From: Candidatus Gottesmanbacteria bacterium
GTDB taxonomy: Bacteria > Patescibacteriota > Microgenomatia > UBA10105 > UBA927
NCBI GenBank assembly: GCA_030679255.1
Contig: JAUXTO010000013.1
Span: 256,189 to 307,295 of the forward strand
Length of the DNA stretch: 51,107 nucleotides
Reading direction: 5' to 3'
The notes below the pieces were generated by a model. The model made no database searches and was not told the origin of the DNA. It saw nothing but the letters and a program-made list of their open reading frames with translations. Shown here piece by piece: positions 1,141-22,636 of the stretch. Both the position numbers and the translations under genes were made by a program. Positions within the stretch are counted from its first letter, which is position 1; each line of letters begins with the position of its first letter.

Positions 1141-1219
1141 ATCATCGAATTACGAATGAAGCCCGAATATACGAATTCATTGGATAATTCGTATATTCGT
1201 ACAGATTCGATATTCGATA
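1141..1219. repeat. Word-repeat hairpin element, ACGAAT/ATTCGT family, copy 1 of 3 (rplO-secY spacer)
   Basis: atcatcgaattacgaatgaagcccgaatatacgaat is followed by the inverted block attcgtatattcgtacagattcgatattcgat. It is near-identical to 16550-16628: the first 36 nt differ at 2 positions and the last 14 nt are identical. Confidence 0.85.
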
Positions 1220-1222
1220 ATG

Positions 1223-1654
1223 TTATGACTCCGCTGTACCACCAGCTTTTGTAATAGCTTCTCTGGCAGATGCGGAGCATGGAACCTTAACCGTCAAGGC
1301 GACCGTAACCTCTCCGGCGCCTAATAGTTTCACCCGGCTGACACCAGCATCAATCATATGATATTTCCGAAGCGTTTCCAATGTAACAACCGTGCCTTTC
1401 GGCAGACCATTGAGTTTTTCTATCGCGATAGGAAACGCTTTAGGTTTTTGAGATCCGTTGCGGCCTTTGCCCCGCAAATACGGCAACCGCTTGACGAGCG
1501 GCGACTGGCCACCCTCAAAACCGCGCGGCATACTGCCGCGTGCCTTCTGGCCCTTTGTACCACGGCCGGACGTTTTATTTTTCCCGGAACCATGACCACG
1601 GCCGATGCGCTTCTTTGGTCGTCTGGTGAGCGATGGTAAATGCGATAAGTTCAT
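1223..1654 (-). CDS. rplO: 50S ribosomal protein L15
   Basis: MNLSHLPSLTRRPKKRIGRGHGSGKNKTSGRGTKGQKARG is a typical L15 N-terminus. The gene lies between rpsE and secY. Confidence 0.95.
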   Translation of the reverse strand: MNLSHLPSLTRRPKKRIGRGHGSGKNKTSGRGTKGQKARGSMPRGFEGGQSPLVKRLPYLRGKGRNGSQKPKAFPIAIEKLNGLPKGTVVTLETLRKYHMIDAGVSRVKLLGAGEVTVALTVKVPCSASAREAITKAGGTAES

Positions 1655-1656
1655 AG

Positions 1657-2127
1657 TTATTTAATCTGAATATTTTTCAACTGTTTCAGAGCATCCATGG
1701 TCGCATAGACATTGGATGCTTGATTCTTACTTCCTAAAATCTTGGAGGATATATCCCGGATTCCTGCCGCTTCCACGACCGCCCGCACCGCGCCACCTGC
1801 GATAACTCCGGTACCGGGAGGAGCTGGTTTAAGTAAAATTTTGGCCGCGCCGCGCTTGACATAGACCTGATGTGGGATGGTCCGTCCCCGCATGGGAACG
1901 ATGATTTGATGCTTCTTGGCATAACTGACGGCCTTTTTGACTCCTGATGATACATCCGGTGCCTGCCCGAGCCCTACCCCGACCCGGCCTTTTCTGTCTC
2001 CGACGACCACGAGCACTGAATATCCGGCCTTATTGCCTCCTTTGGTCTTTTTGGAAACACGGTTGACCTGGACGACTTTTTCGGCAAACTCTGATAGCCG
2101 CGGATCTGAACGTTGTTGATATTTCAT
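1657..2127 (-). CDS. rpsE: 30S ribosomal protein S5
   Basis: Contains [27 protein letters not shown] and [13 protein letters not shown] motifs. It is in spc-operon order and is followed directly by rplO with no L30 gene. Confidence 0.95.
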
Positions 2128-2174
2128 AGTTCGATTTACTCACTATGACCCTGAATTTTTATCGAAGGGTCATA

Positions 2175-2504
2175 TTAAAATTTGAGTCCTCCCTCCCGTG
2201 CGGCATCGGCAAATGCTTTTATGACACCATGATACCGGTTTCCTCCCCGATCAAATACCACCGAAGTAATGGTATGTTTCATGGCCAATGCGGCGATATC
2301 TTTGCCCATCTTCACGCCCATCGCCATATTTTTGCCGATCGAACGTTTGGACACTAGCGTACGCCCGGCCTCATCGTCAATAATTTGCACAAACAATGCA
2401 GTCCCCGACCGGTAGACAGCCAATCTGGGACGAGAGGCCGACCCTCGCACCACCGCACGGATGCGGCGTTGTCGAGATATTCTTTTGATTTTTCTATTTA
2501 GCAT
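2175..2504 (-). CDS. rplR: 50S ribosomal protein L18
   Basis: Contains RQRRIRAVVRGSASRPRLAVYRS and VVFDRGGNRYHGVIKAFADAAREGGLKF, and sits in operon order. Confidence 0.95.
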   Translation of the reverse strand: MLNRKIKRISRQRRIRAVVRGSASRPRLAVYRSGTALFVQIIDDEAGRTLVSKRSIGKNMAMGVKMGKDIAALAMKHTITSVVFDRGGNRYHGVIKAFADAAREGGLKF

Positions 2505-2506
2505 AA

Positions 2507-3067
2507 TTATTTTGCTCCGGGAGCACCTCCCACGGCTTTGGCGGATTTACCCGCTTTTCTCCGAACATATTCACCGACATACTTGATGCCTTTGCCTTTA
2601 TACGGTTCCGGCTTTTTCACGGCTCTCACGGAAGCCGCCACCTGTCCTACTGCATGTTTATCACTCCCTGCGACGATAATCTTACCTTCCGTCACGGATA
2701 ATGTAATACCCGGGGGCGGCGTGATCGTAACCGGATGAGAAAATCCTACCGTTAATACAACGCTTTGTCCGTTCATGGTCGCTCGATATCCCACACCGGA
2801 GAGCTCCAAAGTTTTTGTCCAAAGGGTTGTGGCGCCTACAACCGCATTATGGAGTTCGGCACGAAAATATCCATGGAGCGAACGAGTATCCCTCTCTTCG
2901 TCCAGTCTCGTCACGGATACTTGATTTCCAGAGACGGAAACCGCAAGTCCCACAGGAATAGTCAAAACCCGCTCCCCCTTGGGCCCTTTCACCATAACAG
3001 AACTCCCTGATACATTCATGGATGCTCCATCACCCAACGTAATTGGCATTTTTCCGATTCGTGACAT
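2507..3067 (-). CDS. rplF: 50S ribosomal protein L6
   Basis: MSRIGKMPI...GVGYRA...KPEPYKGKGIKY, in operon order. Confidence 0.95.
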   Translation of the reverse strand: MSRIGKMPITLGDGASMNVSGSSVMVKGPKGERVLTIPVGLAVSVSGNQVSVTRLDEERDTRSLHGYFRAELHNAVVGATTLWTKTLELSGVGYRATMNGQSVVLTVGFSHPVTITPPPGITLSVTEGKIIVAGSDKHAVGQVAASVRAVKKPEPYKGKGIKYVGEYVRRKAGKSAKAVGGAPGAK

Positions 3068-3073
3068 AAGTTA

Positions 3074-3466
3074 TTACCAGACTTCACACAGTAATTCTCC
3101 GCCGATGTTTTTTTTCTTCGCGAGCTTGCCCGTCATGATCCCTTGGGGGGTCGAAAGAATTGCAACTCCCATACCTCCGACTACCGTGGGAATGGCATTA
3201 CTTGCAACATAGATCCGCATCCCTGGCTTGCTTTTACGTTTCATATCCGTGAGGCTGGGGGTTTTACCCTCATACCGCAGTCGAAGCTCAAGCGTTTTTA
3301 CCACGCGTTCCCCGGCCGAGCGAACGGAGGACAAATACCCTTCATCCATAAGAATCTTGGCAACTGCCTCTTTGAGTTTAGAATGCGGCAGAACCATAAC
3401 GGTTTTACCCGCCATATACGAATTTTTAATCTGCGCCAACATGTCTCCTATCGGATCTGAAACCAT
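3074..3466 (-). CDS. rpsH: 30S ribosomal protein S8
   Basis: DPIGDMLAQIKNSYMAGK...GGELLCEVW, in operon order. Confidence 0.95.
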   Translation of the reverse strand: MVSDPIGDMLAQIKNSYMAGKTVMVLPHSKLKEAVAKILMDEGYLSSVRSAGERVVKTLELRLRYEGKTPSLTDMKRKSKPGMRIYVASNAIPTVVGGMGVAILSTPQGIMTGKLAKKKNIGGELLCEVW

Positions 3467-3476
3467 AATATTATTG

Positions 3477-3662
3477 TTACCACGACGCCTTTGTCACGCC
3501 GGGTAATTCTCCTTTATGAGCGAGCTCCCGAAAACACAATCTGCATATTCCAAACTTCCGCATGAACGCCCGGTTTCTGCCGCATAACCCGCAGCGGTTT
3601 TTATGCCGGACGGCAAATTTTTGACTATGTTCAAATTTAACAACATCAGAAGTTTTCGCCAT
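3477..3662 (-). CDS. rpsN: 30S ribosomal protein S14, type Z (zinc-binding)
   Basis: 61 aa with a CGLCGR...CRLCFRE double CxxC motif, located between rplE and rpsH. Confidence 0.93.
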
Positions 3663-3667
3663 AATAA

Positions 3668-4213
3668 TTATTTCTCAAACGGCATACCCAGATACGTCAA
3701 TAACTTTTTGGCGTGTGTGTCGCTCCCGGACCTGGTCACAAATGTTACTTCAAATCCCCGTGTTTTATCAATAAGCGTATATTCTAGCTCCGCAAATATC
3801 GTCTGATCGCTTATCCCCAAGGTGTAATTGCCGTGTCCGTCAAAACCGGATGCCGATACGCCCCGGAAATCCCGCACCCTTGGGAGCGCAATGGTCACAA
3901 GCCTCGTGAAAAAATCAGACATAAAACGGCCCCGGAGGGTCACTTTGAGCCCAACGGCATCGCCCGCACGGAGTTTAAACGTCGAAATTGCCCGTTTGGC
4001 CCTTGTCACAGACGGCTTCTGGCCGGTGATGACGGCAAGCTGGGCCGCCACCTTTTCGATAACTTTCTTATCTGCGAGAGCCTCGCGGCCTATGCCGCAG
4101 TTAACGACAATTTTCATAAGACGCGGGATGGCCATAGGGTTGGTAATTCCCAAATCTGTCTTTAATTTCGGTATTATTTCTTTCTGATATGTTTCTTGTA
4201 TAGTCATATGCAT
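3668..4213 (-). CDS. rplE: 50S ribosomal protein L5
   Basis: [13 protein letters not shown]...[19 protein letters not shown], in operon order. The start could instead be the third-codon Met. Confidence 0.94.
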
Positions 4214-4250
4214 GAGTCGTATGAGTCTAATGGGTCAAATGAGTCACATG
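4209..4250. repeat. Word-repeat element, ATGAGTC family, copy 1 of 2 (rplE-rplX spacer)
   Basis: atgcatgagtcgtatgagtctaatgggtcaaatgagtcacatg shows a roughly 9-nt period of ATGAGTCNN. The same word array is at 20481-20520. Confidence 0.8.
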
Positions 4251-4251
4251 A

Positions 4252-4557
4252 TTATAATTTCTGTTCACACTTCCGGCAGATGCGCTCCTTTTCTCCTTTG
4301 ACTACAAGATATCCCACCCGTGTCGGTTGATTGCACTTCGGACAGACAAGAACGACCTTGCTTACTGCAATCGGTTTCGTAATTTCTATAATGCCTCCGG
4401 CCTGCTTCTCACCTTGCTTTTTCTTGTGGCGTTTATAGATATTCACGCCGGTCACGACCACTGATCCCAGAGCGGGAAACGTTTTTTCCACTTTTCCTTT
4501 TTTTCCTTTATCCTTTCCTGTCGTAACAATAATTGTGTCACCTTTCCGTATTTTCAT
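4252..4557 (-). CDS. rplX: 50S ribosomal protein L24
   Basis: MKIRKGDTIIVTTGKDKGKKGKV KOW motif, in operon order. Confidence 0.94.
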   Translation of the reverse strand: MKIRKGDTIIVTTGKDKGKKGKVEKTFPALGSVVVTGVNIYKRHKKKQGEKQAGGIIEITKPIAVSKVVLVCPKCNQPTRVGYLVVKGEKERICRKCEQKL

Positions 4558-4598
4558 AAGACTGGATTCTCGCGCCTAGCGCGGGAATGACAAAAAAA

Positions 4599-4973
4599 CT
4601 AATACACTTCGGAAGCCATGCTGACAATTTTATGAAACCCCCGCTCCTTGAGCTCCCGGGCAACCGGCCCGAAAATACGGGTACCCCGAGGATTTTTATC
4701 ATCTGCATTATCAATGATCACTCCCGCATTATCATCAAAACGGATATACGAGCCATCCTTGCGGTGATACTCTTTGTGTACCCGGGCGACGACGACTTTC
4801 ACCATTTCGTCTTCTTTGACAAGCCCTGTGGGATCAGCCTTCCTGATGACACATTGCACAATATCTCCAAGACTTGCAAACTTGCGCTTAGAAGATCCGT
4901 AAATATGGATCACGACCATTTCCCTGGCCCCTGAATTGTCCGCAACTACGAGTGATGTACGTCGTTGAATCAT
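4599..4973 (-). CDS. rplN: 50S ribosomal protein L14
   Basis: [19 protein letters not shown]...[15 protein letters not shown]. Confidence 0.95.
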
Positions 4974-5236
4974 AGTTTTTCGATAACGATAAAGTGTTTC
5001 CGTTTGCTCATCGGTATGGTTTCTTTCATTTTGACGGTATCTCCTACCTTGATATCCGGGAGTGTATTATGTGCCGCAAAACGATGGCTCTTGCGGACCG
5101 TCTTTTTGTACAGTTTGTGGGCGTACGTACGCACGACTTGTACGATGACGGTCTTTGTCATTTTGGTGGATATCACTTTGCCCGTCATAATTCTTCCTTT
5201 TCCGGTATTTGTCGATGGTGTCATTTCTTTTTTCAT
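4970..5236 (-). CDS. rpsQ: 30S ribosomal protein S17
   Basis: [38 protein letters not shown]. It overlaps the rplN start by 4 nt. Confidence 0.94.
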
Positions 5237-5259
5237 ATGATGAATCTCAAGCCAGACTG

Positions 5260-5469
5260 TTATGATACCAGAGAAAGCTCCCGCTCGCGCATGATCGTTT
5301 TACTTACGGCAACAACGGTACGTTTTGTACGATATAAACGCAGATTTTTCATTTGCTTGGTCTTCCGTTCGACTCGACCTTTCAGCATCTCTGTTTCAAG
5401 CGTTTGTATCTGCTTGACAAGTTCTGCGTCAGACATGGCCCGTAATGATTGTTTTTCCTTTTTTTTCAT
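5260..5469 (-). CDS. rpmC: 50S ribosomal protein L29
   Basis: 69 aa helical protein ([22 protein letters not shown]) lying between rplP and rpsQ. Confidence 0.9.
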
Positions 5470-5472
5470 AAT

Positions 5473-5880
5473 TTACTCTTTCACGATAAACTTGGTCCGT
5501 ACCGGCAACTTAATGCTCGCAAGCCGCATCGCTTCTCGGGCATCTTCCATAGGTACTCCTGCCATCTCAAACATAATTCGCCCTGGCTTGACGACTGCGA
5601 CGTATTCGGCTACATCGCCTTTCCCACTACCCATACGGGTTTCCGGAGGCTTTTTCGTAATCGGTTTATGCGGAAAAATACGGATCCAGATACGCCCCCC
5701 GCGCTTCGTATAATGCGTGAGAGCGCGCCGGGCGGCTTCAATCTGCCGGCTTCCCACCCAACCGACCGTCAGAGCCTTGAGGCCAAATTCTCCAAAATTA
5801 ACCTCACTCCCGCGGTACGCGAGTCCTCCGCGTTTTCCGCGGAATTCTTTTCTGTGTTTGGCCCGTCTTGGTGCAAGCAT
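5473..5880 (-). CDS. rplP: 50S ribosomal protein L16
   Basis: [19 protein letters not shown]...[26 protein letters not shown]. Confidence 0.95.
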
Positions 5881-5883
5881 AAA

Positions 5884-5951
5884 AGCTATCAGCTATCAGC
5901 TATCAGCTATCAGACTGTCTGACGACTGAAGACTGAAAGCTGACGACTATC
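5884..5951. repeat. Heptamer word-repeat element, AGCTATC/TGACGAC family (rplP-rpsC spacer)
   Basis: (agctatc)x4 is followed by agactgtc tgacgac tgaagac tgaaagc tgacgac. The same words, partly reverse-complemented, occur inside copA at 19557-19621 and 18009-18029. Confidence 0.85.
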
Positions 5952-5953
5952 CA

Positions 5954-6610
5954 TCAACTCTTTCTACAAATCCACACTTTTACCCCAATATACCCGGATT
6001 TTGTAAGTGCCGGGACAATGGCAAAATCTATATCTTCCCGGATCGTTGAGAGCGGGATCGTACCCGACTGAAATTTCTCGCGCCGGGCAATTTCTGCTCC
6101 GTTTATGCGTCCTGACAATCGAATACGGACTCCCTTAGCGCCTGCCGATATTGCCCGCTCAACCGCCTGATTGCATACCCGCTTATGCGGCATCCGGCGG
6201 ACGAGTTGATCAGCGATATTGGTGGCAACGAGTGTGGCGTTCAAATTCGGCTCCTTGACCGGCTCGACGGCGATATCGACTTTGACGACTTGGGCTTTGC
6301 CCACTACGGTTTTTAATCTCTTACTTAATAAATCTTCCACAAATTTTTTAAGAATCTCCAGCCCGCTTCCTCCACGGCCAATCACCACTCCGGGACGTGA
6401 GACATGGACAGTGACTTTTACTTTATTAATCGACCGTTCAATTTCCACAAGCGCAAGCCCCGCGCTTTTCAGCTTGACCCCGAGTTGCCGCCGCAGTGCC
6501 ACATCAGCCAACAGTAGTGTACTGTATGTCCTGCTGTCGGCGTACCAACGCGATGACCAGTTAAATACTGGTCCGATACGGAATCCTCTTGGATTTATTT
6601 TTTGTCCCAT
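5954..6610 (-). CDS. rpsC: 30S ribosomal protein S3
   Basis: MGQKINPRGFRIGP is the canonical S3 start. The 14 upstream codons in the ORF track lie in the spacer repeat and are probably not translated. Confidence 0.93.
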   Translation of the reverse strand: MGQKINPRGFRIGPVFNWSSRWYADSRTYSTLLLADVALRRQLGVKLKSAGLALVEIERSINKVKVTVHVSRPGVVIGRGGSGLEILKKFVEDLLSKRLKTVVGKAQVVKVDIAVEPVKEPNLNATLVATNIADQLVRRMPHKRVCNQAVERAISAGAKGVRIRLSGRINGAEIARREKFQSGTIPLSTIREDIDFAIVPALTKSGYIGVKVWICRKS

Positions 6611-6624
6611 ATATTTAGAAATTC

Positions 6625-6745
6625 CAAATCTCAAGTACCAAGTACCAAACAAACGAAATCAAGCACTAATATACAAACAACTTAATTAGTTCTTGTTTGT
6701 TTCTGTTTGTTGCTTTGCTATTGTTTGATGCTTGGCTTTTGGTGC
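6625..6745. repeat. Word-repeat tract (GTACCAAG / CAAACA / TGCTTG words) spanning the rplV-rpsC spacer and the 3' end of rplV
   Basis: caagtaccaagtaccaaacaaacgaaatcaagcac...gttcttgtttgtttctgtttgttgctttgctattgtttgatgcttggcttttggtgcttgatgctt has forward and inverted blocks. The part at 6686-6745 encodes the L22 tail KHQAPKAKHQTIAKQQTETNKN. Confidence 0.75.
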
Positions 6746-7087
6746 TTGATGCTTACCTACTTCATCAGTCAACGTCACCCGTATATGGGTCATTCTTTTT
6801 TTAAACGCATGCGCCTGACCCTTGGATACCGCGTGCCAGCGCTTCATTGCCGGACCCGGTAGTACTTCTATTGATTTGATCCGCAGTAGCGTCGTATCTG
6901 CTTTTTTTTCTTTCGCCCCTGCTATAGCTGATGCCAAAACGTCTGCAAGCGGTCGGGCGACCCGTTTGGGCAATTGTCCTAATTTGACGAGCGCTCCCGC
7001 GGCCGTCAACCGATGAATCGAACGCGCTACTAATTGTACTTTGCGCGGACCCATCTTCACATATTTGGCAATCGCTGAAAATTCCAT
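6686..7087 (-). CDS. rplV: 50S ribosomal protein L22 (with low-complexity C-terminal tail)
   Basis: AIAKYVKMGPRKVQLVARSI...LRIKSIEVLPGPAMKRWHAVSKGQAHAFKKRMTHIRV, in operon order. Confidence 0.94.
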   Translation of the reverse strand: MEFSAIAKYVKMGPRKVQLVARSIHRLTAAGALVKLGQLPKRVARPLADVLASAIAGAKEKKADTTLLRIKSIEVLPGPAMKRWHAVSKGQAHAFKKRMTHIRVTLTDEVGKHQAPKAKHQTIAKQQTETNKN

Positions 7088-7091
7088 ATAT

Positions 7092-7168
7092 ATAAGTCTA
7101 TAAAGTCGAAAGTCTATAAAGTCTCTAAAGTCAAACTTTTAACTTTATGACTTTAAGGACTTTTGACT
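7092..7168. repeat. Word-repeat hairpin element, TAAAGTC/GACTTTA family, copy 1 of 2 (rpsS-rplV spacer)
   Basis: ataagtctataaagtcgaaagtctataaagtctctaaagtc is followed by the inverted block aactttatgactttaaggacttttgac. Confidence 0.85.
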
Positions 7169-7170
7169 CA

Positions 7171-7455
7171 TTACGTCTTATCCATCGTCCGCTTGGTCAC
7201 CTGACCGTGACCACGGAACGTCCGCGTCGGACTAAACTCACCTAAACGGTGACCAACCATGGCCTCCGTCACGAATACTTCGATAAACGTTCGTCCATTG
7301 TGTACACCAAACCGGTGCCCAACGAAATCAGGAGAAATCTGACATGCCCGGGACCATGTTTTAATAGGCGTCCGCTCCCCGCCTGCTTTTTGGCGGTTCA
7401 CTTTCACCAGAACCCTCGGATCTATGTATGGACCTTTTTTAGAACTTCGTGCCAT
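7171..7455 (-). CDS. rpsS: 30S ribosomal protein S19
   Basis: [16 protein letters not shown]...[32 protein letters not shown]. Confidence 0.95.
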
Positions 7456-7464
7456 AGTTTAGTT

Positions 7465-7540
7465 AAAAGTCTATAAAGTCATAAAGTCTATAAAGCCAAA
7501 ACCGTACTTTACGGACTTTATGAACTTGTGAACTTTTGAC
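7465..7540. repeat. Word-repeat hairpin element, TAAAGTC/GACTTTA family, copy 2 of 2 (rplB-rpsS spacer)
   Basis: aaaagtctataaagtcataaagtctataaagcc is followed by the inverted block gtactttacggactttatgaacttgtgaacttttgac. Confidence 0.85.
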
Positions 7541-8296
7541 TTATTTTTTTCTCTGTAATATAAACTTATCACTATACTTCTTAGGACTTCGTGTCTTTTT
7601 TCCCAATGTCCTCTTGCCCCACGGACTCTTTGGCGAAGACAACCCAATGCCGCTTCTGCCTTCTCCTCCGCCATGCGGATGAGATCGGGGATTTTGCGCA
7701 ACTCCGCGGACCCCCGGACGGATACCCATAAGCCTGCTTGTACCGGCTTTCCCGATCACCCGGTTTTTCCACTCAACATTACCCACTTGTCCGACGGTCG
7801 CCCGGCAATTCCCCGAAAAAACACGTATTTCTCCTGACGGAAGCTTTAATTGTACACGATCTCCCTCTTTTGCCAAAATGCTCGCCCCAGTCCCCGCGCT
7901 TCGCATCATCTGGGCTCCTGCCCCCGGCTTGATTTCTACACAATGAACAAGGGTGCCTACCGGCATATCCCCAAGGGTCAAACTGTTGCCCGGTTTGATC
8001 TCCGCATTTTTTCCTGAAACAACCACCGCTCCCACTTCAAGTCCGACAGGGGCCAAAATATACCGCTTCTCACCGTCCTTGTCCTGCAATAACGCGACTC
8101 CCGCTGTGCGGTTCGGGTCATACTCTATGGCCAGTACGCGGGCAGAAACGCCCTCTTTATCCCGCCGCCAATCAATCAAACGGTAAAACCGTTTCTGCCG
8201 GCCGCCCTGATGCCGAACCGCAACATGACCGGACACATCACGACCAGAGTGTTTTTGAAGAATTTCGTGTAATTGTTTTGACCTTTTTGTATTCAT
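7541..8296 (-). CDS. rplB: 50S ribosomal protein L2 (N-terminally short)
   Basis: SGRDVSGHVAVRHQGGRQKRFYRLIDWRR...VRGVAQNPRSHPHGGGEGRS. At 251 aa it lacks about 25 residues of the usual N-terminus. Confidence 0.94.
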   Translation of the reverse strand: MNTKRSKQLHEILQKHSGRDVSGHVAVRHQGGRQKRFYRLIDWRRDKEGVSARVLAIEYDPNRTAGVALLQDKDGEKRYILAPVGLEVGAVVVSGKNAEIKPGNSLTLGDMPVGTLVHCVEIKPGAGAQMMRSAGTGASILAKEGDRVQLKLPSGEIRVFSGNCRATVGQVGNVEWKNRVIGKAGTSRLMGIRPGVRGVAQNPRSHPHGGGEGRSGIGLSSPKSPWGKRTLGKKTRSPKKYSDKFILQRKK

Positions 8297-8300
8297 GGTT

Positions 8301-8369
8301 AATCTACGAATCTACGAATATGCGAATCTACGAATGTATTCCTATTCGCAGATTATGCATTCGTAGATT
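8301..8369. repeat. Word-repeat hairpin element, ACGAAT/ATTCGT family, copy 2 of 3 (rplW-rplB spacer)
   Basis: aatctacgaatctacgaatatgcgaatctacgaat is followed by the inverted block attcgcagattatgcattcgtagatt. Confidence 0.85.
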
Positions 8370-8371
8370 AC

Positions 8372-8674
8372 TCATTTCTTCTCCGTCTCTCCCGTCACTT
8401 CAAATGCGTCAATTTTTTGACCAGCTTTCAATTGTACAAGTGCTTTTTTCCAATCCACCCGCTTCACTTTCTTCGCCCGCTTACCCGCAGAACGAACCTT
8501 GCCATGCATCATGATCGTCCGGACCGACTCGACCGACACGCCATAAATATCCATAACAGCCTGGGCAATTTCCGGTTTCCTACTCCCCGCCGTCACGGCA
8601 AAAGTGTACCATCCCCGTGAGGCTAAATTTAGGCTTTTTTCCGTAATAACCGGCCGGATCACTGTTTGTTTCAT
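8372..8674 (-). CDS. rplW: 50S ribosomal protein L23
   Basis: VIRPVITEKSLNLASRGWYTFAV, in operon order. Confidence 0.93.
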   Translation of the reverse strand: MKQTVIRPVITEKSLNLASRGWYTFAVTAGSRKPEIAQAVMDIYGVSVESVRTIMMHGKVRSAGKRAKKVKRVDWKKALVQLKAGQKIDAFEVTGETEKK

Positions 8675-9489
8675 ACGCTTTTTTCTGGTCTATACCGCGA
8701 CTTCAATACTGCAATTGCTTCTTTCATAAACACCAACGTTTGATGCGATAGAACGACGTACGCATGTAAATTTTGTGCGGACAAAATATCTATGTCTGCA
8801 ATGTTGCGCGAAACTCTCGTTGTCAACTTCGCGTCGCTCCCGACTATGAGAAGCGTAGAACCTTTAACCCCATTGGCCTGCAAGGCTGCAGCCATTGCTT
8901 TTGTTTTTGAAAGTCCGCCAAGTCCGTCAATGACCATGAGTTTCCCTTCCAATTTCGCGCTGGTAAGTGCGCTGGCCAGAGCCGCACGTTTCATTTTTTG
9001 TGGCAAATCCAAATGATAATCGCGCGGGTGAGGTCCGAACGTGATGCCCCCGCCAACGAATATCGGCGCCCGAATGCCCCCGTGACGGGCCCGTCCGGTA
9101 CCTTTTTGACGATAAATTTTGCGCGTCGATCCTTCTACCTGTCCACGGGTTTTTGTGGCGGCTCCCCCTTCACGTTGGTTAGCCAAATACACGCGGACGG
9201 CCTGAGCTACGAGTGCATTATTAATTTTTGCGCCAAAAAGCTCTGCGGGGATGGCAATAGTACCGACGGATTTCCCGTCAATCCCATGGACGGGAACGGC
9301 GATCGAAGAAGATTGGGGCGATTGGCTCGCCTCGCTGGAGCTACGGCGAAGCGGGGGATGTTGGGGGATTTTGGGAGATCGGGGGGATGTGGGAGAGAAA
9401 CGAGTTTTAACCGTAGCGCGAGATACCGGTTTCGTTTTGACGACCGGCTTTTTGACAATTTTCTTTATAGCTTTTTTTACTTTTGGCAT
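8671..9489 (-). CDS. rplD: 50S ribosomal protein L4 with about 70 aa basic/Ser-Pro-rich N-terminal extension
   Basis: The core VPVHGIDGKSVGTIAIPAELFGAKINNALVAQAVRVYLANQREGGAATKTRGQVEGSTRKIYRQKGTGRARHG is canonical L4. The extension is MPKVKKAIKK...SPTSPRSPKIPQHPPLRRSSSEASQSPQSSS. Confidence 0.92.
   Translation of the reverse strand: MPKVKKAIKKIVKKPVVKTKPVSRATVKTRFSPTSPRSPKIPQHPPLRRSSSEASQSPQSSSIAVPVHGIDGKSVGTIAIPAELFGAKINNALVAQAVRVYLANQREGGAATKTRGQVEGSTRKIYRQKGTGRARHGGIRAPIFVGGGITFGPHPRDYHLDLPQKMKRAALASALTSAKLEGKLMVIDGLGGLSKTKAMAAALQANGVKGSTLLIVGSDAKLTTRVSRNIADIDILSAQNLHAYVVLSHQTLVFMKEAIAVLKSRYRPEKSV
9351..9397. repeat. GGGGGAT word repeats inside the rplD N-terminal extension
   Basis: gcgggggatgttgggggattttgggagatcggggggatgtgggagag has four GGGGGAT-type words at about 10-nt period. 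It encodes the PTSPRSPKIPQHPP segment on the minus strand. Confidence 0.75.
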
Positions 9490-9499
9490 ATATTAATTA

Positions 9500-10144: not shown

Positions 10145-10309
10145 AACAAGAACGACCTCGGTTGAGGTCGTTATCTCATCCAAGACTTTTGATAGATCTA
10201 ACCTGATATGAAACAATTGCTTATCATATCAAAGCTAAAGTATATCAGAGTATCTCCTCGCGTGCAACGCACGCGTGATTAGCACGTGATTTCATGTGCT
10301 CATCTCTTC

Positions 10310-11852: not shown

Positions 11853-11866
11853 AGGTCCTCCTTAAT

Positions 11867-14057: not shown

Positions 14058-14061
14058 AATA

Positions 14062-14091
14062 ATAAAAAAACTGCTCCGACCCCGAAGCAGT
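14062..14091 (-). terminator. Intrinsic terminator-like hairpin plus U-run between the PP2C gene and the fusA start
   Basis: Minus strand reads ACUGCUUCG-GGGU-CGGAGCAGU (9-bp stem with one G-U pair, tetraloop) followed by UUUUUUU. It ends about 5 nt before the fusA ATG. Confidence 0.7.
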
Positions 14092-14140
14092 CACCCCTTG
14101 CTTCTTACCTGTCTATTATATAAAGGAAGAGAGACAAAGT

Positions 14141-14860
14141 CTAGAGCCGGACGAGGAGGGATATGTCATCACGCTGGGTGCCGCGGCGGGTGACCTCATT
14201 AAGAATGGTTTCAACAATCTTCTTTGGGGATTCTTTCGTGGGATTTACCGCAAGCGCGTTGATATCTTTCAAAGACAAAACGTCTTTGATGCCGTCGGTA
14301 GCGATAAGAACCGGCTGATCGGATGGAATGGTCATCACGTCAGGCTGATAGCTGAACTCCGGAATTTTTCTATCTCCAAGTCCGATGAAACGTGATACGT
14401 TACTCGGATATTTTGTTGGATCTATCCAATGGTCAATAAGTTCATCAGGCTTGTACCAAGCAGATTCTTTCCACAGATATAATTGAACGTCTCCTATGGA
14501 AACGATCTCGTCTCCATGGCTTTTGTGGATGAGAAAACACGCAACACAGCTTGCGTACCGAGGATGAATCCGTTCAGCGTGAACATTTAATTTCTCAGCT
14601 ATAGTATCTGCTTTCATTTTTAACGTTTTTTCGTGTGCAGTGTCGTAAAAAGAAGGAAATTTTTCAGCAACAGCAAGCGCAATTTCTCTACCCATGACAT
14701 CTCCCGTTGTAAATTTTGGATTATTCCATCCGTCCACAACACAAATAATGTAATCTCCACCATCAAGCGGATGAACCTGTATGACGTCCTGATTGCGTTT
14801 GAATGGGAGGAGGTTGTAGGCGATGTGGTGTTTAGGGATTGTCCTAATAGTATATTTCAT
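14141..14860 (-). CDS. PP2C/SpoIIE-family serine/threonine phosphatase-like protein
   Basis: Contains VVDGWNN...IATDGIKDV...GTQRDDISLLV metal-binding Asp motifs. The start is assigned to MKYTIR; the ORF-track start 16 codons upstream is less likely. Confidence 0.7.
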   Translation of the reverse strand: MKYTIRTIPKHHIAYNLLPFKRNQDVIQVHPLDGGDYIICVVDGWNNPKFTTGDVMGREIALAVAEKFPSFYDTAHEKTLKMKADTIAEKLNVHAERIHPRYASCVACFLIHKSHGDEIVSIGDVQLYLWKESAWYKPDELIDHWIDPTKYPSNVSRFIGLGDRKIPEFSYQPDVMTIPSDQPVLIATDGIKDVLSLKDINALAVNPTKESPKKIVETILNEVTRRGTQRDDISLLVRL

Positions 14861-16271: not shown

Positions 16272-16550
16272 ATGCCGAAGGGAATGCCGAGAGACCAGTC
16301 AATTGAACGAACTATTCTTCACCGGCTAAAAATAGCTCGGGGACACTTGGATAAAGTCATCGGAATGGTAGAAGAAGACCACTACTGTATCGATGTGGTC
16401 CACCAATCCATGGCCGTCCAGGCGGCGCTACGGGAAGCGGATCATTTGATCCTGAAAAATCATATGCAAACGTGTGTGGCTGACTCCATCCGGAAGGGTG
16501 ACGCAAACGACGTCATTGATGAAGTGATGAAGATCATGGAGAAGAAGTAA
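16272..16550 (+). CDS. csoR: CsoR/RcnR-family metal-sensing transcriptional repressor
   Basis: 92 aa. RLKIARGHLDKVIGMVEEDHYCIDVVHQSMAVQAAL...MQTC carries the C-H-C ligand pattern of Cu(I)-sensing CsoR. Confidence 0.88.
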   Translation: MPKGMPRDQSIERTILHRLKIARGHLDKVIGMVEEDHYCIDVVHQSMAVQAALREADHLILKNHMQTCVADSIRKGDANDVIDEVMKIMEKK

Positions 16551-16628
16551 TCATCGAATAACGAATGAAGCCCGAATATGCGAATGAGAATGAATTCGTA
16601 GATTCGTATCAATTCGATATTCGATGAT
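16550..16628. repeat. Word-repeat hairpin element, ACGAAT/ATTCGT family, copy 3 of 3
   Basis: atcatcgaataacgaatgaagcccgaatatgcgaat...gaattcgtagattcgtatcaattcgatattcgat. It is the near-twin of 1141-1219. Confidence 0.85.
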
Positions 16629-16637
16629 AAAAATTAT

Positions 16638-17633: not shown

Positions 17634-19985
17634 ATGAAAACATCGTTTCCCATCATCGGTATGCATTGCGCAAGTTGCGCGCGGCTCATCGAAAAAAAGC
17701 TGAAGAAGACTCCGGGAGTGACAGACGCGATGGTCAATTATGGGAGCGAACAAGCATCTGTCGAGTTTGATGAGGCATCCTGCAATGTAGAAACGCTCGG
17801 GCGGGCGGTCGAGAATATTGGCTATAAAGCTATCATCGAGCCGATGACAGGGCCTGGCCCTGTCAAAAAAACAACGGATGAAATGAAAGAGGAAGCAAAA
17901 AAGAAAGAGCTCTCCGATCTCAAAATAAAAGTGGTTGTTTCAAGCGTTTTGAGTGTTTTCATCGTCCTTGGGAGTTTTCCGGAATGGTTTGGTGGGGCGA
18001 TGTCCGCCATCAGCGATCAGCTATCAGCAACGCTTACCAATCCCCTTGTGCTTCTCGGACTCACCATTCCCGTCCAATTTTGGGCCGGGTGGGGATTTTA
18101 TCAGGCTACGTGGTCGGGTCTTAAAAACCGCGCAGCAGGTATGGATACCCTGATTGCAATCGGCACGAGCGCCGCATTCGGATTTTCCGTCCTCACTACA
18201 CTTTTTGAACAGCAACTTCGCGCGGCGGGCTTCCCTATTATCATGTACTACGATACCGCGGCCGTCATCATAGCGCTCATCCTCCTCGGCCGGTATCTCG
18301 AGGCCAAAGCGAAGGCGCACACGAGCGACGCAATCAAAAAACTTCTCCATCTGCAGGCAAAGACTGCTCGCGTAATCCGAAATGGGCAAGAGATAGATAT
18401 ACCCATTGAAGAGGTCAAAACAGGTGATACGATCCGCGTCCGACCGGGAGAAAAAATCCCTGTAGACGGAAAAATTACCGACGGATCCTCAAGCATAGAT
18501 GAATCCATGGTGACCGGCGAGTCGATGCCCGTGGATAAAAAAATTGACGATCCGGTCATTGGCGCCACCATCAATAAAACCGGCACATTCCTCTTTTTGG
18601 CGACAAAAGTGGGAAGCGACACAATGCTTGCCCAAATTGTCACGATGGTTGCCCAAGCCCAAAGCTCACGCGCACCTATCGCGCGCCTTGCCGATGTCAT
18701 CTCCTCTTATTTTGTACCCATCGTTCTCATGCTTGCCGCGGCCACATTCGTCATCTGGTACGACGTCGGGTCATTTGCAGCTGCCTTCACCAACATGATT
18801 GCCGTCCTGATCATCGCCTGCCCCTGCGCGCTTGGCCTCGCGACCCCAACGGCCATCATGGTCGGAACAGGGCGGGGCGCAGAACGCGGAATCCTCATCA
18901 AAGACGCCCAGGCACTGGAGATTGCTCATAAAACAAAGATCGTAGTATTTGATAAAACCGGGACCCTTACCCGCGGCGAGCCCAAAGTCACCGATGCGGT
19001 GTTTGTCGAATCACTCAAAAATATCGATGAACTAAAAGCGGCAATAGTAGCCGTAGAAAAAAACTCAGAGCATCCATTGTCCAGGGCAATCGTAGATTAT
19101 ATCGGGGAGATAAGAGGGGTCAGGGATACAGGGGTAAAAAATTTCGCGGCTATTGAAGGGTTTGGCGTGAGAGGCGACGCAACCGTAGCCTCAAGGCCTG
19201 GCCTTGAGGCTAACACATTACGGGTGCTCGTGGGAAACAAAAAACTTATGGAAAAAGAGCGTGTTGGAGTGGAAACCTCACTGGATAAAAAAGCGAACGA
19301 ATGGATGCATGAGGGGAAAACACTTGCCTATGTCGCAGTCAACAATAAAAATGTCGCACTATTTGCAATAGCCGATACCATCAAGACGGAAGCCAAAGAG
19401 ATGGTCACTTCTCTCAAAAAAATGGGGATTGCCGTATGGATGATCACCGGGGATAACGAAGTGACGGCCCGTGCAATTGCCAAACAAGCGGGTATTGATA
19501 ACGTCCTTGCCGGTGTATTACCGCAGGAAAAAGCGGAAAAAATCAAAGAACTCAAGCAGTCGTCAGTCGTCAGTCGTCAGTCGTCAGATAGTCTGAAAGC
19601 TGAAGACAGACAGCTGAAGACTTCTGTCGTTGCGTTCGTTGGGGATGGGATCAATGACGCGCCGGCTCTTGCCTCCGCTGACGTCGGGATTGCGATGGGA
19701 ACCGGCACGGATGTGGCGATAGAATCAGCCGGTATCACACTCCTCAACCGCGATCTGCGCAGCGTAGTGACCGCGGTGAATCTCTCCCGCGTGACCCTTG
19801 GCATCATCAAACAAAATCTTTTCTGGGCATTTGGCTATAACGTCATCCTCATCCCTGTGGCCATGGGAGCACTCTACCCCATCACAGGATGGCTCCTGAA
19901 TCCCGCCCTCGCCGCATTTGCCATGGCGGCAAGCAGCATATCCGTCGTCGGTAATTCATTACGGTTGAAAGGAGTAAAAATATGA
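17634..19985 (+). CDS. copA: Copper-translocating P1B-type ATPase
   Basis: N-terminal HMA motif GMHCASC, TGES, the CPC transmembrane motif, DKTGTLT and [11 protein letters not shown], in a 783 aa protein. Confidence 0.96.
18009..18029 (+). repeat. Three tandem ATCAGCN heptamers inside copA
   Basis: atcagcg atcagct atcagca (21 nt, in frame) encodes ISDQLSA. It is the same word as the 5884-5913 spacer repeat. Confidence 0.7.
19557..19621 (+). repeat. Heptamer word-repeat tract inside copA (in-frame insertion)
   Basis: (cagtcgt)x4 cagatag tctgaaa gctgaag acagaca gctgaag encodes [20 protein letters not shown], between the [11 protein letters not shown] helix and [15 protein letters not shown]. 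Confidence 0.85.
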
Positions 19986-20479
19986 ACAGTGATACGAAAA
20001 TCATCATCGGTGCGATTGCAGCAAGCGTTGTAATTATCGCGGGAGCGGTATTTCTTTTGGGTAAAGACAACAGTCCCAAGCGTGCTGCGCTCGGGGAAGC
20101 CACCATGACGATTGATAAAATATTTGAGGATTTCGGCGACATGAAGCCTGATGAGGAAAAAACCGCTGTATTTACCATCACCAATACCAGCGACTCTATC
20201 TTGCGGCTTTGGGGCGTCTCTACATCTTGCGACTGCACGTTTGCGAGCGTAATAATAGACGGTGTGGCGAGTGGAGAATTTAATATGCCCGCCCACATGA
20301 TCGCGTCACTGAAAAATTGGATCGGCGAAGTGCCTGCCAAACAAACGGCAACACTCAAGGTCACCTACAAGCCGAAAATCATGCCGGTGACCGGCATCGT
20401 CACGCGGCAAACACGGTTTGCAACCAATGATCCGAAGAATGCGGAAGTGGAGGTGTCGGTAAAGGCAAATGTACTCTGA
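19982..20479 (+). CDS. DUF1573-like membrane-anchored protein
   Basis: An N-terminal TM helix is followed by [27 protein letters not shown], typical of DUF1573. Its start overlaps the copA stop. Confidence 0.65.
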
Positions 20480-20480
20480 G

Positions 20481-20520
20481 ATGTGTCTCATGGGGACCAA
20501 TGAGTCTTATGAGTCCCATG
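20481..20520. repeat. Word-repeat element, ATGAGTC family, copy 2 of 2
   Basis: atgtgtctcatggggaccaatgagtcttatgagtcccatg, with the same roughly 9-nt period and words as 4209-4250. Confidence 0.8.
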
Positions 20521-20524
20521 GAAT

Positions 20525-21361
20525 ATGAATATCATAAATACAGTATCGCTCATCACGGCCTTCTTCGGTGGTATGGTGGCACTCTTCGCCCCGTGCTGTA
20601 TCACCTATCTGTTGCCGAGCTATCTCGCAAATATTTTCCGCAGCCGCGAGAAGGTCGTCGCGATGACCATCATCTTTGGCCTGGGAATTGCCACGATCCT
20701 CGTCCCGATGGCCCTGGGCATACGGGCAGTGGGACAAATCTTCCAGCAATATCATACACAAACCTATATCGTGGGCGGCGCATTCATGATCCTCTTGGGA
20801 CTCATGGAACTTACCGGACGAAAAATTACGATTCCCATGATTCACCTGACGATTGACCTCACAAAACGGAATGACCCGTGGAGCGTCTATCTCATGGGGG
20901 TATTCTCCGGCATCACATCGTCCTGCTGCACACCGGTCTTGGCCGGAATCCTGACGCTCAGCTTTCTCTCTCCAACATTTTTCTGGGCGGGGCTTGCCGG
21001 GATCTTCTATGTATTTGGTATGGTCGTGCCGCTCGTCGTCATGGCCCTCATCCTCGAAAAAATGAATTGGGCCAAACTTCCGAAACTCAAAAATAAAACC
21101 ATACTCATCGCGGGAAAACATGTGTTGATCACTGACGCGATAGCGGGCGTCATCTTTATCCTGGTTGGCATCACCTTCACAATACTCGCCCTTACCGGTA
21201 ATATTGTCATGGGTCAAATCCAACCATTGGAACAAATGATGGGTACTGGTGTCGCAAGCGTCGTTCGGACGCTTCGCGCCATCCCCGGAAGTGAGCTCAT
21301 ATTTACCGTGTTGTTCATCATCAGTATTGGAGTATTCATTAGTAAAAGGAGGAAGTCATGA
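20525..21361 (+). CDS. CcdA/DsbD-family transmembrane thiol-disulfide transporter-like protein with vicinal Cys pairs
   Basis: Polytopic protein with FAPCCITYLLP in the first half and ITSSCCTPVLAG in the second. The DsbD_2-like repeat architecture carries CC where a single Cys is usual. Confidence 0.7.
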   Translation: MNIINTVSLITAFFGGMVALFAPCCITYLLPSYLANIFRSREKVVAMTIIFGLGIATILVPMALGIRAVGQIFQQYHTQTYIVGGAFMILLGLMELTGRKITIPMIHLTIDLTKRNDPWSVYLMGVFSGITSSCCTPVLAGILTLSFLSPTFFWAGLAGIFYVFGMVVPLVVMALILEKMNWAKLPKLKNKTILIAGKHVLITDAIAGVIFILVGITFTILALTGNIVMGQIQPLEQMMGTGVASVVRTLRAIPGSELIFTVLFIISIGVFISKRRKS

Positions 21362-22590
21362 AAAAACGATCCACGTCATTTGCTACGTCATTTTCCAAAT
21401 TACCGCATAAAAATATCGTACTATTTTTTATCATAGTGAGCATGACGCTCATCGCATTTAACCTCGGGAGAAATGAAACGCTTTTGCGTCGCCTCATTGC
21501 AAGTCCGTTAAGCGTCTTCCAATCATCAAAAGAATCCGTGTCTGCTAAAGAATTAAAAAAACTCCTTGCGAAAAAGGACTTTGCATTTATCAATGTCCAC
21601 ACCCCCTACGAAGGAGAAATAGAAAAAACCGATACATTTGTCGCCTACGATCAGATGGTCGCCCAAAGCGCGAGTTTACCAAAGGATAAAAATACGCCTA
21701 TCATCCTTTACTGCAAAACCGGCAGGATGAGTGGCGAAGCTATCGTAACCATGCAAAAAATGGGCTATACCAACGTCCGGCATCTCGTGGGCGGTATGGA
21801 TGCATGGACAAAAACAGGAGGAGCATTGCTCGACCTTTCTTCAATCGAAAAAGAGGTGTTGCCGGAGGGAGGCATTGAGCTTCCCATCACATGGGGAGAT
21901 ATTGGCCCGAGACTCATCGCTCTGGGTGTCATCGATGAAACGAAGTTTCGGAAAGCCGTGAACCTCACGCCTGAACAAGAAGAGATCCTCACCAAAGGGT
22001 CAGACAAAAAAATCACGATTGACACGACGAATGGGCAGTTTGTCGTAGACATGCTCTGGGCCATGGGCCTTGCCCAAAAAAGCATTGTCTATGAAGAAGG
22101 GCCTATGGGCCGGGAATATAAAAAGGATGCAGGAAACTTTGCCTCCACCGGCGGGTGGAGTCTCGCGCGCGGCGCGGCTATGCAGTACCTTAACCGGTTT
22201 GACCTCGTGGTACTCACCCCGGAGCAACAGAAAAAAGTCGGCGAAATTGCCCAAAATGTCTACCGCCCGTGTTGCGGCAACTCGACCTGGTTTCCCGACT
22301 GCAACCATGGCATGGCAGCCCTCGCTGCCATTGAACTCATGGTCGCGGCGGGAATTGATGAAAAAGCAATCTACCGCAACGTGCTCGCGCTCAACACCTA
22401 CTGGTTTAGTGATACGTATGTGACGATTGCCACACATTTTGCCCGCCAGGGAATCCCCTGGAAGGAGGTCGATGCAAAAATGATATTGGGCAAAGACTAT
22501 TCAAGTGCGCAGGGGGCACAGGCAATTGCCAAAAAAGTCGGTCCACTTCCCTACAAGCCGCAGCAACAAGGCGGGGGGTGTGGAGCCTGA
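21358..22590 (+). CDS. Membrane-anchored rhodanese-domain protein fused to an uncharacterised Cys-rich C-terminal domain
   Basis: The rhodanese region is FINVHTPYEGEI...IILYCKTGRMSGEA...GGMDAWTKTGG. The C-terminal roughly 250 aa contain RPCCGNSTWFPDCNHGMAALAAIEL and end in QQQGGGCGA. I do not recognise the C-terminal domain. Confidence 0.65.
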   Translation: MKKRSTSFATSFSKLPHKNIVLFFIIVSMTLIAFNLGRNETLLRRLIASPLSVFQSSKESVSAKELKKLLAKKDFAFINVHTPYEGEIEKTDTFVAYDQMVAQSASLPKDKNTPIILYCKTGRMSGEAIVTMQKMGYTNVRHLVGGMDAWTKTGGALLDLSSIEKEVLPEGGIELPITWGDIGPRLIALGVIDETKFRKAVNLTPEQEEILTKGSDKKITIDTTNGQFVVDMLWAMGLAQKSIVYEEGPMGREYKKDAGNFASTGGWSLARGAAMQYLNRFDLVVLTPEQQKKVGEIAQNVYRPCCGNSTWFPDCNHGMAALAAIELMVAAGIDEKAIYRNVLALNTYWFSDTYVTIATHFARQGIPWKEVDAKMILGKDYSSAQGAQAIAKKVGPLPYKPQQQGGGCGA

Positions 22591-22597
22591 CAATAAT

Positions 22598-22636
22598 CAA
22601 ATACTACCAATCCGACAAATACTACCAATACTACAA
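22598..22636. repeat. Word-repeat element, ACTACCAAT family, copy 2 of 2
   Basis: aaatactaccaatccgacaaatactaccaatactacaa, immediately before the ATG at 22637. Confidence 0.82.

Follow-up and report, generated by a model that had tools for sequence, protein, structure and literature searches.

Tandem-word hairpins between ribosomal protein and copper genes of a Candidatus Gottesmanbacteria genome: candidate relatives of rRNA intervening sequences

The window analyzed here, a 51,107-nt stretch from an ultra-small groundwater bacterium of Candidatus Gottesmanbacteria (Candidate Phyla Radiation, CPR; Patescibacteria), contains a long ribosomal protein cluster in which a number of spacers, like some of those in an adjoining copper island, are occupied by tandem arrays of short words that often face their own complement and fold as hairpins. 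On the minus strand, positions 1–14,057 encode secY, then L15 through S10, then tuf and fusA (EF-G). A copper and redox island at 14–23 kb carries csoR, cupredoxin genes, copA and DsbD-like genes, and beyond it lie RhuM and KilA-N genes, rpoBC, dus, an aquaporin gene and a type I restriction system. No Rfam family, tRNA or rRNA was found in the window, nor any Rfam family in the two related loci L002 and L003, and no transposase is among the annotated genes of the window. Sequencing runs containing window sequence were DNA runs only, with no RNA run among them, and an exact-protein look-up for sister strains matched only an identical contig.

The arrays and related inserts are listed below by window coordinates and strand. 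The z-scores compare the predicted RNA fold with 200 shuffles per region, copy numbers are from Tandem Repeats Finder (TRF), and labels of the type L002 denote related loci, of which L002 is the closest relative.

1136–1222, minus: hairpin insert filling the L15-to-secY spacer; 87 nt of ACGAAT/ATTCGT words with a period of 7–8; −32.8 kcal/mol, z −5.5
about 4212–4251, minus: single-arm array in the L24-to-L5 spacer; four 9-nt units GACTCATNN (transcript strand); 4.4 copies; z +0.9
4558–4598, minus: small GC-rich hairpin GTCATTCCCGCGCTAGGCGCGAGAATCCAGTC in the L14-to-L24 spacer; of a class resembling repetitive extragenic palindromic (REP) sequences, not a word array; kept in L002 and L003
5881–5953, minus: hairpin insert in the S3-to-L16 spacer; 73 nt; AGCTATC x4.3 facing TGACGAC-type heptamers, 100% matches in TRF; −35.5 kcal/mol, z −4.7
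6611–6755, minus: weaker hairpin covering the L22 3' end and the L22-to-S3 spacer; CAAACA and GTACCAAG words; z −2.6
7088–7170, minus: AAAGTC/GACTTT hairpin insert in the S19-to-L22 spacer; 83 nt; z −5.7
7456–7540, minus: AAAGTC/GACTTT hairpin insert in the L2-to-S19 spacer; 85 nt; z −5.4
8297–8371, minus: hairpin insert in the L23-to-L2 spacer; 75 nt; AATCTACG octamers x4.4 and their complement; z −5.2
11868–11914, minus: single-arm 9-nt array ATTGGTAGT (transcript strand) in the tuf 5' leader; 5.4 copies; no hairpin
16551–16632, plus: hairpin insert filling the csoR-to-cupredoxin spacer; second ACGAAT copy; −31.6 kcal/mol, z −7.7
18003–18028, plus: three AGCTATC-type heptamers in frame in copA, near residue 125 (…SAISDQLS…); seen with TRF and in repeat families D7 and D9
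19557–19633, plus: AGCTATC/TGACGAC-family hairpin inside copA, an inverted match to the S3-to-L16 element; z −3.1
20481–20520, plus: single-arm 9-nt array of the ATGAGTC type, separating the DUF1573 gene from the next, identified by sequence; no hairpin
22598–22638, plus: single-arm ACTACCAAT 9-nt array; 4.6 copies; no structure; ends at the ATG (22637) of a 289-aa gene of unknown function
32585–32615, no strand assigned: weak 10-nt array AAAATAGGAG x3.1 between the convergent flavodoxin and HhH-GPD genes; one locus, no hairpin

Defining arrays as TRF hits with a period of 6–12 and at least 2.5 copies, we counted 16 in the window, whereas 50 dinucleotide-preserving shuffles averaged 0.92 and never exceeded 4. 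Intergenic DNA makes up 9.8% of the window and holds 12 of the 16 (binomial p = 9e-10). A first-pass annotation, made by a model from the letters alone, had reported word repeats at most of these places, and TRF detects an array at each of those it named; it had also described the AT-rich cassettes as free of them, and none lies in the 24–26 kb or 46–51 kb blocks. Its statement that almost every spacer of the S10-spc cluster is built of repeats was too sweeping: among the 22 junctions from fusA to secY, only 8 have word arrays, 11 are tight (−4 to +23 nt) and the other three hold a GC hairpin, a plain hairpin and a leader. Array density is 0.22 per kb inside the ribosomal cluster and 0.16 per kb outside. 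We rejected a specificity for ribosomal operons, since the cluster has roughly twice as many junctions per kb and there is no enrichment per junction.

Eight of the elements have terminal inverted repeats that pair as one long stem (z −2.6 to −7.7): six in the ribosomal cluster, one in the copper operon and one in frame in copA. The folds at 1135–1225, 5875–5955, 7085–7172, 7458–7545, 8295–8375 and 16545–16632 are strong (z −4.6 to −7.7, with 0 of 200 shuffles as stable), and in each of these six spacers a periodically bulged stem forms a single long hairpin; loops measure 3–9 nt in the five compact hairpins of the ribosomal cluster. The folds at 19550–19640 inside copA (z −3.1) and at 6615–6755 (z −2.6) are weaker. 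No hairpin is predicted at 4205–4255, 11855–11955, 20475–20525, 22590–22645 or 32580–32640 (z −0.3 to +0.9), all of them single-arm arrays. The suggestion that the spacers fold as long hairpins is thus borne out for the eight elements and fails for these five.

Copies assigned to one family were aligned and scored against shuffles. The two ACGAAT hairpins (1141–1221 and 16550–16630) are identical at 71 of 83 positions (z 25), share an irregular GAAGCCCGAAT bulge and lie in different operons on opposite coding strands, in keeping with the early observation that copies occur in operons on both strands. The AGCTATC element at 5873–5951 matches 19555–19635 in inverted orientation (62/78, z 19.5), so that its words do recur in copA, as had been noticed, and the AAAGTC elements at 7088–7170 and 7461–7545 share 61 of 81 positions (z 13.8). 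For the single-arm arrays, the ATGAGTC type at 20481–20520 is related to 4209–4252 (z 7), and the ACTACCAAT array at 22598–22638 to 11865–11915 (31/38, z 6.6). Cross-family control alignments gave z of about 0, so the families survive proper alignment. That every family occurs at more than one locus held for five of seven (z 6.6–25), with GTACCAAG/CAAACA and TAGGAGA found at one locus each; of the three loci proposed for ACGAAT, the first and last form the near-identical pair and the middle one (8301–8375) is only loosely related (z 7–11). The membership of the 32585–32615 array in the class is doubtful because it has one locus and no hairpin.

Some of this material is translated. The 5' arm of the 6615–6755 hairpin encodes an extra C-terminal tail of L22, about 21 aa long, that is missing in L005 to L007, and the S3 start behind it was re-assigned to the conserved MGQKINP at 6610. 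The in-frame insert in copA is 60 nt long (about 19563–19622, residues 644–663) and stands out as a 20-aa gap against solved CopA structures; it is missing in four Gottesmanbacteria CopA proteins and shared by three close ones, and two other relatives have different inserts in the same loop. The residues encoded at 18003–18028 occur only in the window and in P0122 in the CopA alignment A2, which makes the three heptamers a probable insert in a variable linker. More broadly, Gottesmanbacteria CopA proteins have lineage-specific in-frame inserts of 10–26 aa at recurrent loops (A2 columns 128–160, 279–317, 601–610 and 730–756), and one loop of that alignment holds at least three unrelated inserts.

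The window was compared with 80 related loci over the same cluster, fetched by an S3 protein scan, which made 81 genomes in all; genes were placed by tblastn and every spacer was extracted. Of 1269 L3-to-secY junctions, 1001 (79%) are no longer than 20 nt and 212 hold 35–260 nt. Word-built hairpins occupy at least one ribosomal junction in 24 of the 81 Microgenomates genomes and at least three in nine, with eleven in Levybacteria L065. The proposal of a genome-wide process that generates or spreads such spacers fits these numbers, together with the similar density inside and outside the ribosomal cluster, and the process may be called lineage-wide. Presence differs from one genome and junction to the next, also among the closest relatives of the window, and L002 lacks four of the window inserts. 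Alignments of filled against empty junctions place each insert exactly between stop and start codon.

Individual junctions illustrate this variation. The L15-to-secY spacer is an overlapping ATGA junction in L002, L003 and L006, and L23-to-L2 is filled in the window only (9 nt in L002, 2 nt in L003, −4 to +11 nt in the others). S3-to-L16 has a 3-nt spacer in L002 and five different word families across the window, L003, L004, L005 and L006. At S19-to-L22, L005 to L012 have 1–4 nt and L002 has the same insert as the window plus five extra GACWTTATA units, and at L2-to-S19 orthologous 72-nt inserts are present in L002 and L003 and absent from L005 to L012. The array before L5 ends 3 nt before the conserved L5 ATG and has four units in the window, one in L004, five in L006 and none in L002 and L003. 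The tuf-leader array, which sits between an extended −10 box and the Shine-Dalgarno sequence, has about four ATTGGTAGT units in the window, one in L002, three to four in L003 and three in L006. The inserts are therefore additions and dispensable, since most relatives do without them, and both words and unit numbers vary at orthologous sites, a check that the first-pass annotation had proposed. The alignments further indicate that arms, once in place, gain and lose whole units, as replication slippage predicts.

A different relationship is seen between unrelated sites. The S19-to-L22 element of the window and the S3-to-L16 insert of L004, which lie in inverse orientation to each other, share 92% identity over 75 nt, whereas the ribosomal genes of the two genomes are 71% identical and their four-fold sites only 40%; the spacer triplets also stand in identical order in the AAAGTC elements of the window and L004. 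Because the elements are so much more similar than the four-fold sites, they appear to be either recently spread or constrained in sequence. Taken with the family alignments within the window, this comparison indicates that copies have been pasted between unrelated sites, both within and between genomes. They persist only where harm is small, exactly from stop to start or in frame in tolerant protein loops.

Two other kinds of insert were noted at ribosomal junctions. GC-rich, REP-like hairpins of the form GTCATTCC-CGCG…CGCG-GGAATGAC make up a second class found in several genomes; those similar to the window hairpin at 4558–4598 lie at L15-to-secY in L004, at S17-to-L14 and L14-to-L24 in L014, and at L18-to-S5 in L070. 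The S17-to-L14 spacer of L002, L003 and L005 contains a 150-nt element, CCAGGTAGTAGAAACTCGAC…GTCGAGTTTTCACTACCTGG, with a predicted fold of −51.5 kcal/mol and no match in Rfam. L002 and L003 agree at 148 of its 150 positions, the match to L005 is 140 of 150, and four-fold sites between these genomes are only 37–47% identical. Diverged copies with the same ends occupy three other junctions in L003 and L005, and the element may be a conserved structured RNA or a mobile element. The window has no insert at this junction, where S17 and L14 overlap (4970–4973).

The hairpins follow a common plan. In a set of 41 word hairpins from 17 genomes, the median element is 82 nt long, with 2 nt separating it from the upstream stop codon, 9 nt from the downstream start codon, and a 6-nt loop; 27 hairpins have a period of 7, 10 have 8 and 3 have 9. 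The 5' arm is the more G-rich one in 30 hairpins and the 3' arm in 1, and ATG or GTG occurs 50 times in 5' arms and 10 times in 3' arms. Handedness of this kind is intrinsic to the element and does not depend on its orientation, because a palindrome reads the same on both strands; the arm poor in G and in start codons always lies next to the downstream start. None of the genes downstream of hairpin inserts is preceded by a Shine-Dalgarno sequence. Sense and antisense strands fold equally well (20 versus 20 elements) and G-U pairs are no more common on one than on the other (80 versus 89), so folding gives no sign of selection on the mRNA strand.

Several further ideas about the arms were discarded. 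Selection on the sense RNA strand was unsupported by fold energy or G-U counts. A stop-rich 5' arm was rejected, as 5' and 3' arms close 2.22 and 2.17 frames, respectively, and only the 3'-arm depletion of G and ATG/GTG holds. There are no relay open reading frames (ORFs) of the kind associated with mycobacterial interspersed repetitive units (MIRUs), the mini-ORFs that run on from the upstream stop ending 10–208 nt short of the downstream start. Seeding by a nickase at GAGTC was dropped because that motif shows no avoidance and nothing else out of the ordinary (67 sites in 51 kb).

The word pattern of 7092–7168 (AAAGTCNNNAAAGTCNAAAGTCNNNAAAGTC) was also scanned against public metagenome contigs, which returned at least 120 contigs, and 121 loci were examined among the matches listed. 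At 18 of these 121 AAAGTC loci a PF05635 gene, encoding the four-helix-bundle protein of 23S rRNA intervening sequences (IVSs), lies close to the array (Pfam E 1e-30 to 1e-34; tblastn raised the count from 14 to 18), and 16 of the same 121 carry ORF-less hairpins like those of the window. In the 14 loci found initially, an ORF of about 115 codons follows the array, by 2–83 nt in 13 and by 915 nt in L107, and wherever the flanks were inspected (13 of 13 loci) a complementary GACTTT array follows the ORF. The arms of these cassettes thus have the word pattern of the window's S19-to-L22 insert. As an unbiased check, four PF05635 genes were chosen for the similarity of their proteins and for no other feature; each lies between inverted AAAGT-type arrays, with host genes that run in one direction, such as tig and clpP, on either side. 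More divergent PF05635 genes (about 25–27% identity) on the same contigs are flanked by other words, CAAATCC/GGATTTG and AAAATAT/ATATTTT. Among viral contigs, the word pattern was found in one and a distant PF05635 relative in one; there is little sign of spread by phage. At L112 (about 2000–2700, reversed strand), a 16S rRNA gene is interrupted about 75 nt from its 5' end by an insertion that encodes a distant PF05635 homologue of 117 aa between complementary flanks; it is an ORF-bearing IVS in 16S instead of 23S rRNA.

The interpretation that we favor, with moderate confidence, is that the window hairpins belong, as forms without an ORF, to a class of IVS-like foldback repeats that reside in mRNA spacers instead of rRNA helices. 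The unit of such a class would be a tandem array of a 7–9-nt word, a short loop and the complementary array, and full-length members would carry the PF05635 gene in the loop. A small class of non-autonomous mobile elements had been among the roles suggested at the outset, and the near-identical copies at non-orthologous sites and the ORF-bearing form of the AAAGTC family both speak for it. Single-arm arrays may be half-copies or relatives of the same kind. Complementarity of the arms could be kept up by templated correction within the palindrome or by selection. Once transcribed, the stem would bring stop and start back to within about 11 unpaired nucleotides, so that termination-reinitiation coupling of genes that lack a Shine-Dalgarno sequence could survive the insertion; translation would then select the handedness, keeping the start-proximal arm poor in G and in ATG/GTG. 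The stem would also be a plausible RNase III substrate, as it is in rRNA IVSs.

A number of observations weigh against this interpretation. There is no PF05635 gene in the window itself by ORF scan, tblastn or hidden Markov model (HMM) search, nor in 1.37 Mb of ribosomal-cluster loci by tblastn and HMM search, and the link to the ORF was examined for a single word family, AAAGTC. Among the matches listed, 81 of the 121 loci are single-arm arrays without an ORF, which shows that arrays also occur independently of cassettes. The elements have no linked transposase or reverse transcriptase, we know of no mobility function for PF05635, and filled-versus-empty alignments at six junctions revealed no duplicated flank. 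Finally, the 92% identity against saturated four-fold sites, together with a 3' arm poor in G and ATG, could mean that the host selects a function.

That last point leads to the alternative that survives best, which we nonetheless consider unlikely: the hairpins are RNA punctuation selected by the host, serving as RNase III sites, as stabilizers of the 3' end of the upstream cistron or as stems that bridge translational coupling, and their spread reflects recruitment rather than selfish copying. It would account for the tight placement, 2 nt after a stop and 9 nt before a start, for downstream genes without a Shine-Dalgarno sequence, for the skew between the arms and for the high identity of the elements. 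The orthologous L2-to-S19 insert kept in the window, L002 and L003 fits as well, and IVS stems are known to be excised by RNase III (PMC4990558). Punctuation of this kind is harder to square with the 79% of relatives' junctions that lack an insert and with the four inserts missing from L002, and sister genomes hold different word families at the same junction. The equal folding of both strands and the G-U counts also argue against it, as does the presence of the same element in both orientations and inside a coding loop. No Rfam family matched.

A purely local origin, in which a short motif slips in place, its inverted partner arises by template switching and nothing moves between sites, would make the shared words a convergence from biased composition. 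We regard this as rather improbable. Copy number does change at orthologous sites, and single words stand where relatives have arrays, in the tuf leader of L002 and before L5 in L004. L002 and L005 have ATTCGT/ATTCCT by the L2 start, where the window has (ATTCGTAG)n, and the A-rich repertoire is broad, with 106 heptamer classes in 197 arrays. Convergence does not readily explain why copies at unrelated loci share irregular detail (the GAAGCCCGAAT bulge, the order of spacer triplets in the window and L004), why cross-family controls show no similarity, or why one conserved gene lies between these same arms on many contigs that are unrelated. A third proposal, that the arrays are iterons or operators, phased DNA sites for a regulator of the flanking genes, is very improbable: units are phased and some arrays lie near promoters, such as the tuf-leader array downstream of its extended −10 box, but unit number ranges from 1 to 5 between close relatives, words differ by junction, and most copies lie inside operons between co-transcribed cistrons, with some in coding sequence.

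A bolder extension of the IVS-like interpretation is speculative, and we think it improbable as a whole. PF05635 (Avd-like) four-helix-bundle genes and inverted tandem-word arms might form one widespread, undescribed mobile system, with rRNA IVSs, CPR operon hairpins and the short tandemly repeated repetitive (STRR) and TAACTGA arrays of other phyla as its autonomous members and relics. In such a system a promoterless cassette would ride on host transcripts and be excised by RNase III at a register-tolerant stem, which would yield the protein's own mRNA and leave both halves of the host RNA usable. New copies of the cassette would then enter other spacers that are transcribed, through an action of the Avd-like protein on the arms and perhaps with a reverse transcriptase, as in diversity-generating retroelements.

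Several further features of the window lie outside the class. In the minus-strand L4 gene, a 10-nt repeat (9353–9390, x3.9) falls in the Ser/Pro-rich N-terminal region and adds about 13 residues relative to L002 and L003. The S10-to-L3 spacer (10103–10309, minus) is a leader conserved in relatives, with an extended −10-like box TCTGATATACT, a small hairpin, and a terminator-like stem and T run just before the L3 start. It looks like an internal promoter plus an attenuator or ribosomal protein leader, and it has no match in Rfam. The listed L3 start (TTG at 10216) is probably wrong, as an ATG near 10102 suits the relatives better. At 14058–14160, rpsL and rpsG are not upstream of fusA; an intrinsic-terminator-like hairpin (14092–14069, minus strand) and a PP2C/SpoIIE-type phosphatase gene lie there instead, followed by the copper island. 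Farther along, between the aquaporin and type I restriction genes and adjoining a Bro-N gene, a 75-nt segment occurs four times on the minus strand (43698–43772, 44476–44550, 45229–45303 and 46347–46421; 68–89% identical to the reference copy). It includes a gene start encoding MILNKTILILEDDLLT…, and short or broken frames follow most copies.

Our results tie together three things, namely ORF-less intercistronic word hairpins, single-arm arrays and PF05635 cassettes with the same arms. To our knowledge, neither a function nor a mode of spread has been established for rRNA IVSs and the S23p/PF05635 protein since about 1990, and the heptamer repeats of cyanobacteria and sulfur bacteria are equally unexplained. 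The tightly coupled ribosomal protein operon of small CPR genomes evidently can accommodate structured inserts of about 80 nt at many of its junctions. Recognition of its own arms by the four-helix-bundle protein, punctuation of mRNA by RNase III, and termination-reinitiation across a stem all become testable. Annotation is affected in practice as well: start and stop calls are displaced by the inserts (S3, L3 and L22 here), and conserved proteins such as CopA acquire in-frame loops.

Among known repeat systems, clustered regularly interspaced short palindromic repeats (CRISPR) can be ruled out, because units of 7–10 nt are contiguous and there is no spacer-repeat layout. The initial judgment that the elements are not classical REP sequences or bacterial interspersed mosaic elements (BIMEs), CRISPR or miniature inverted-repeat transposable elements (MITEs) was sound, as no target-site duplication, spacer-repeat layout or REP head was seen. 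Correia/NEMIS-type MITEs and Rickettsia palindromic elements (RPEs) are ORF-less derivatives, and RPEs insert in frame in conserved proteins. The window hairpins likewise appear to be ORF-less derivatives of a longer element that can be co-transcribed, and the copA and L22 cases resemble in-frame RPE insertion. They differ in that there is no sign of a target-site duplication, no transposase-bearing parent, and a whole element that is a tandem-word palindrome. REP, BIME and REPIN elements are short, non-autonomous intergenic hairpin repeats whose putative partner gene, a REP-associated tyrosine transposase (RAYT) of the HUH Y1 type, is flanked by the same repeats. Dispersal of short hairpins between cistrons and a partner gene set between the same repeats are common to both systems. 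However, the CPR elements have no GTAG-type head and no 20–40-nt unit palindrome, their arms are 3–5 tandem words that differ by junction, the associated gene encodes a four-helix bundle and not a HUH Y1 transposase, and there are many families with few copies each.

Closer in its building blocks is a group of tandem repeats. Cyanobacterial STRR sequences were reportedly described by Mazel et al. in 1990 as tandem short heptamer-type repeats. The TAACTGA heptamer repeats of Beggiatoaceae, cyanobacteria and Bacteroidetes are intergenic, lie near start codons and occur in ribosomal operons too; each genome has one word, in direct orientation, with only 1 of 170 sets inverted (PMC4679880). As in our elements, the words are short and tandem, mostly heptamers in 2–6 copies, almost all intergenic and often ending a few nucleotides from a start codon, and in both cases the function is unexplained and horizontal spread is suspected. 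The arrays at 4214–4251, 20481–20520 and 22598–22638 are tandem, direct, intergenic and near a start, just as STRR and TAACTGA repeats are defined, with units of 9 nt, and the tuf-leader array at 11868–11914 also resembles them. The CPR class differs in having many word families per genome, ribosomal-cluster copies that are mostly inverted pairs and therefore hairpins, and a linked cargo gene.

The closest counterpart is the ORF-bearing 23S rRNA IVS (S23p/PF05635) of Coxiella burnetii and Leptospira. IVSs are selfish stem-loop elements with an S23p ORF that are cut out by RNase III, the Coxiella example being 428 nt long (PMC4990558). The window copies differ from them in lying between protein cistrons or in frame rather than in 23S rRNA helices 9, 25 or 45, in lacking an ORF, and in having arms of tandem 7–9-nt words rather than a unique 28-bp stem; RNase III excision is a feature of the rRNA IVSs and would extend to the window hairpins by analogy. 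We found no literature description of word-built intercistronic hairpins in CPR bacteria, or of PF05635 genes framed by tandem-word arms outside rRNA. The likeness lies in a long stem that terminal inverted repeats form and whose loop may carry a PF05635 ORF, in residence within a highly transcribed unit where breakage of the RNA is harmless, and in a sporadic distribution of the kind regarded as selfish. It extends to the genes themselves, since PF05635 genes lie between the same AAAGTC/GACTTT arrays that form the window hairpins, and one divergent homologue lies inside a 16S rRNA gene.

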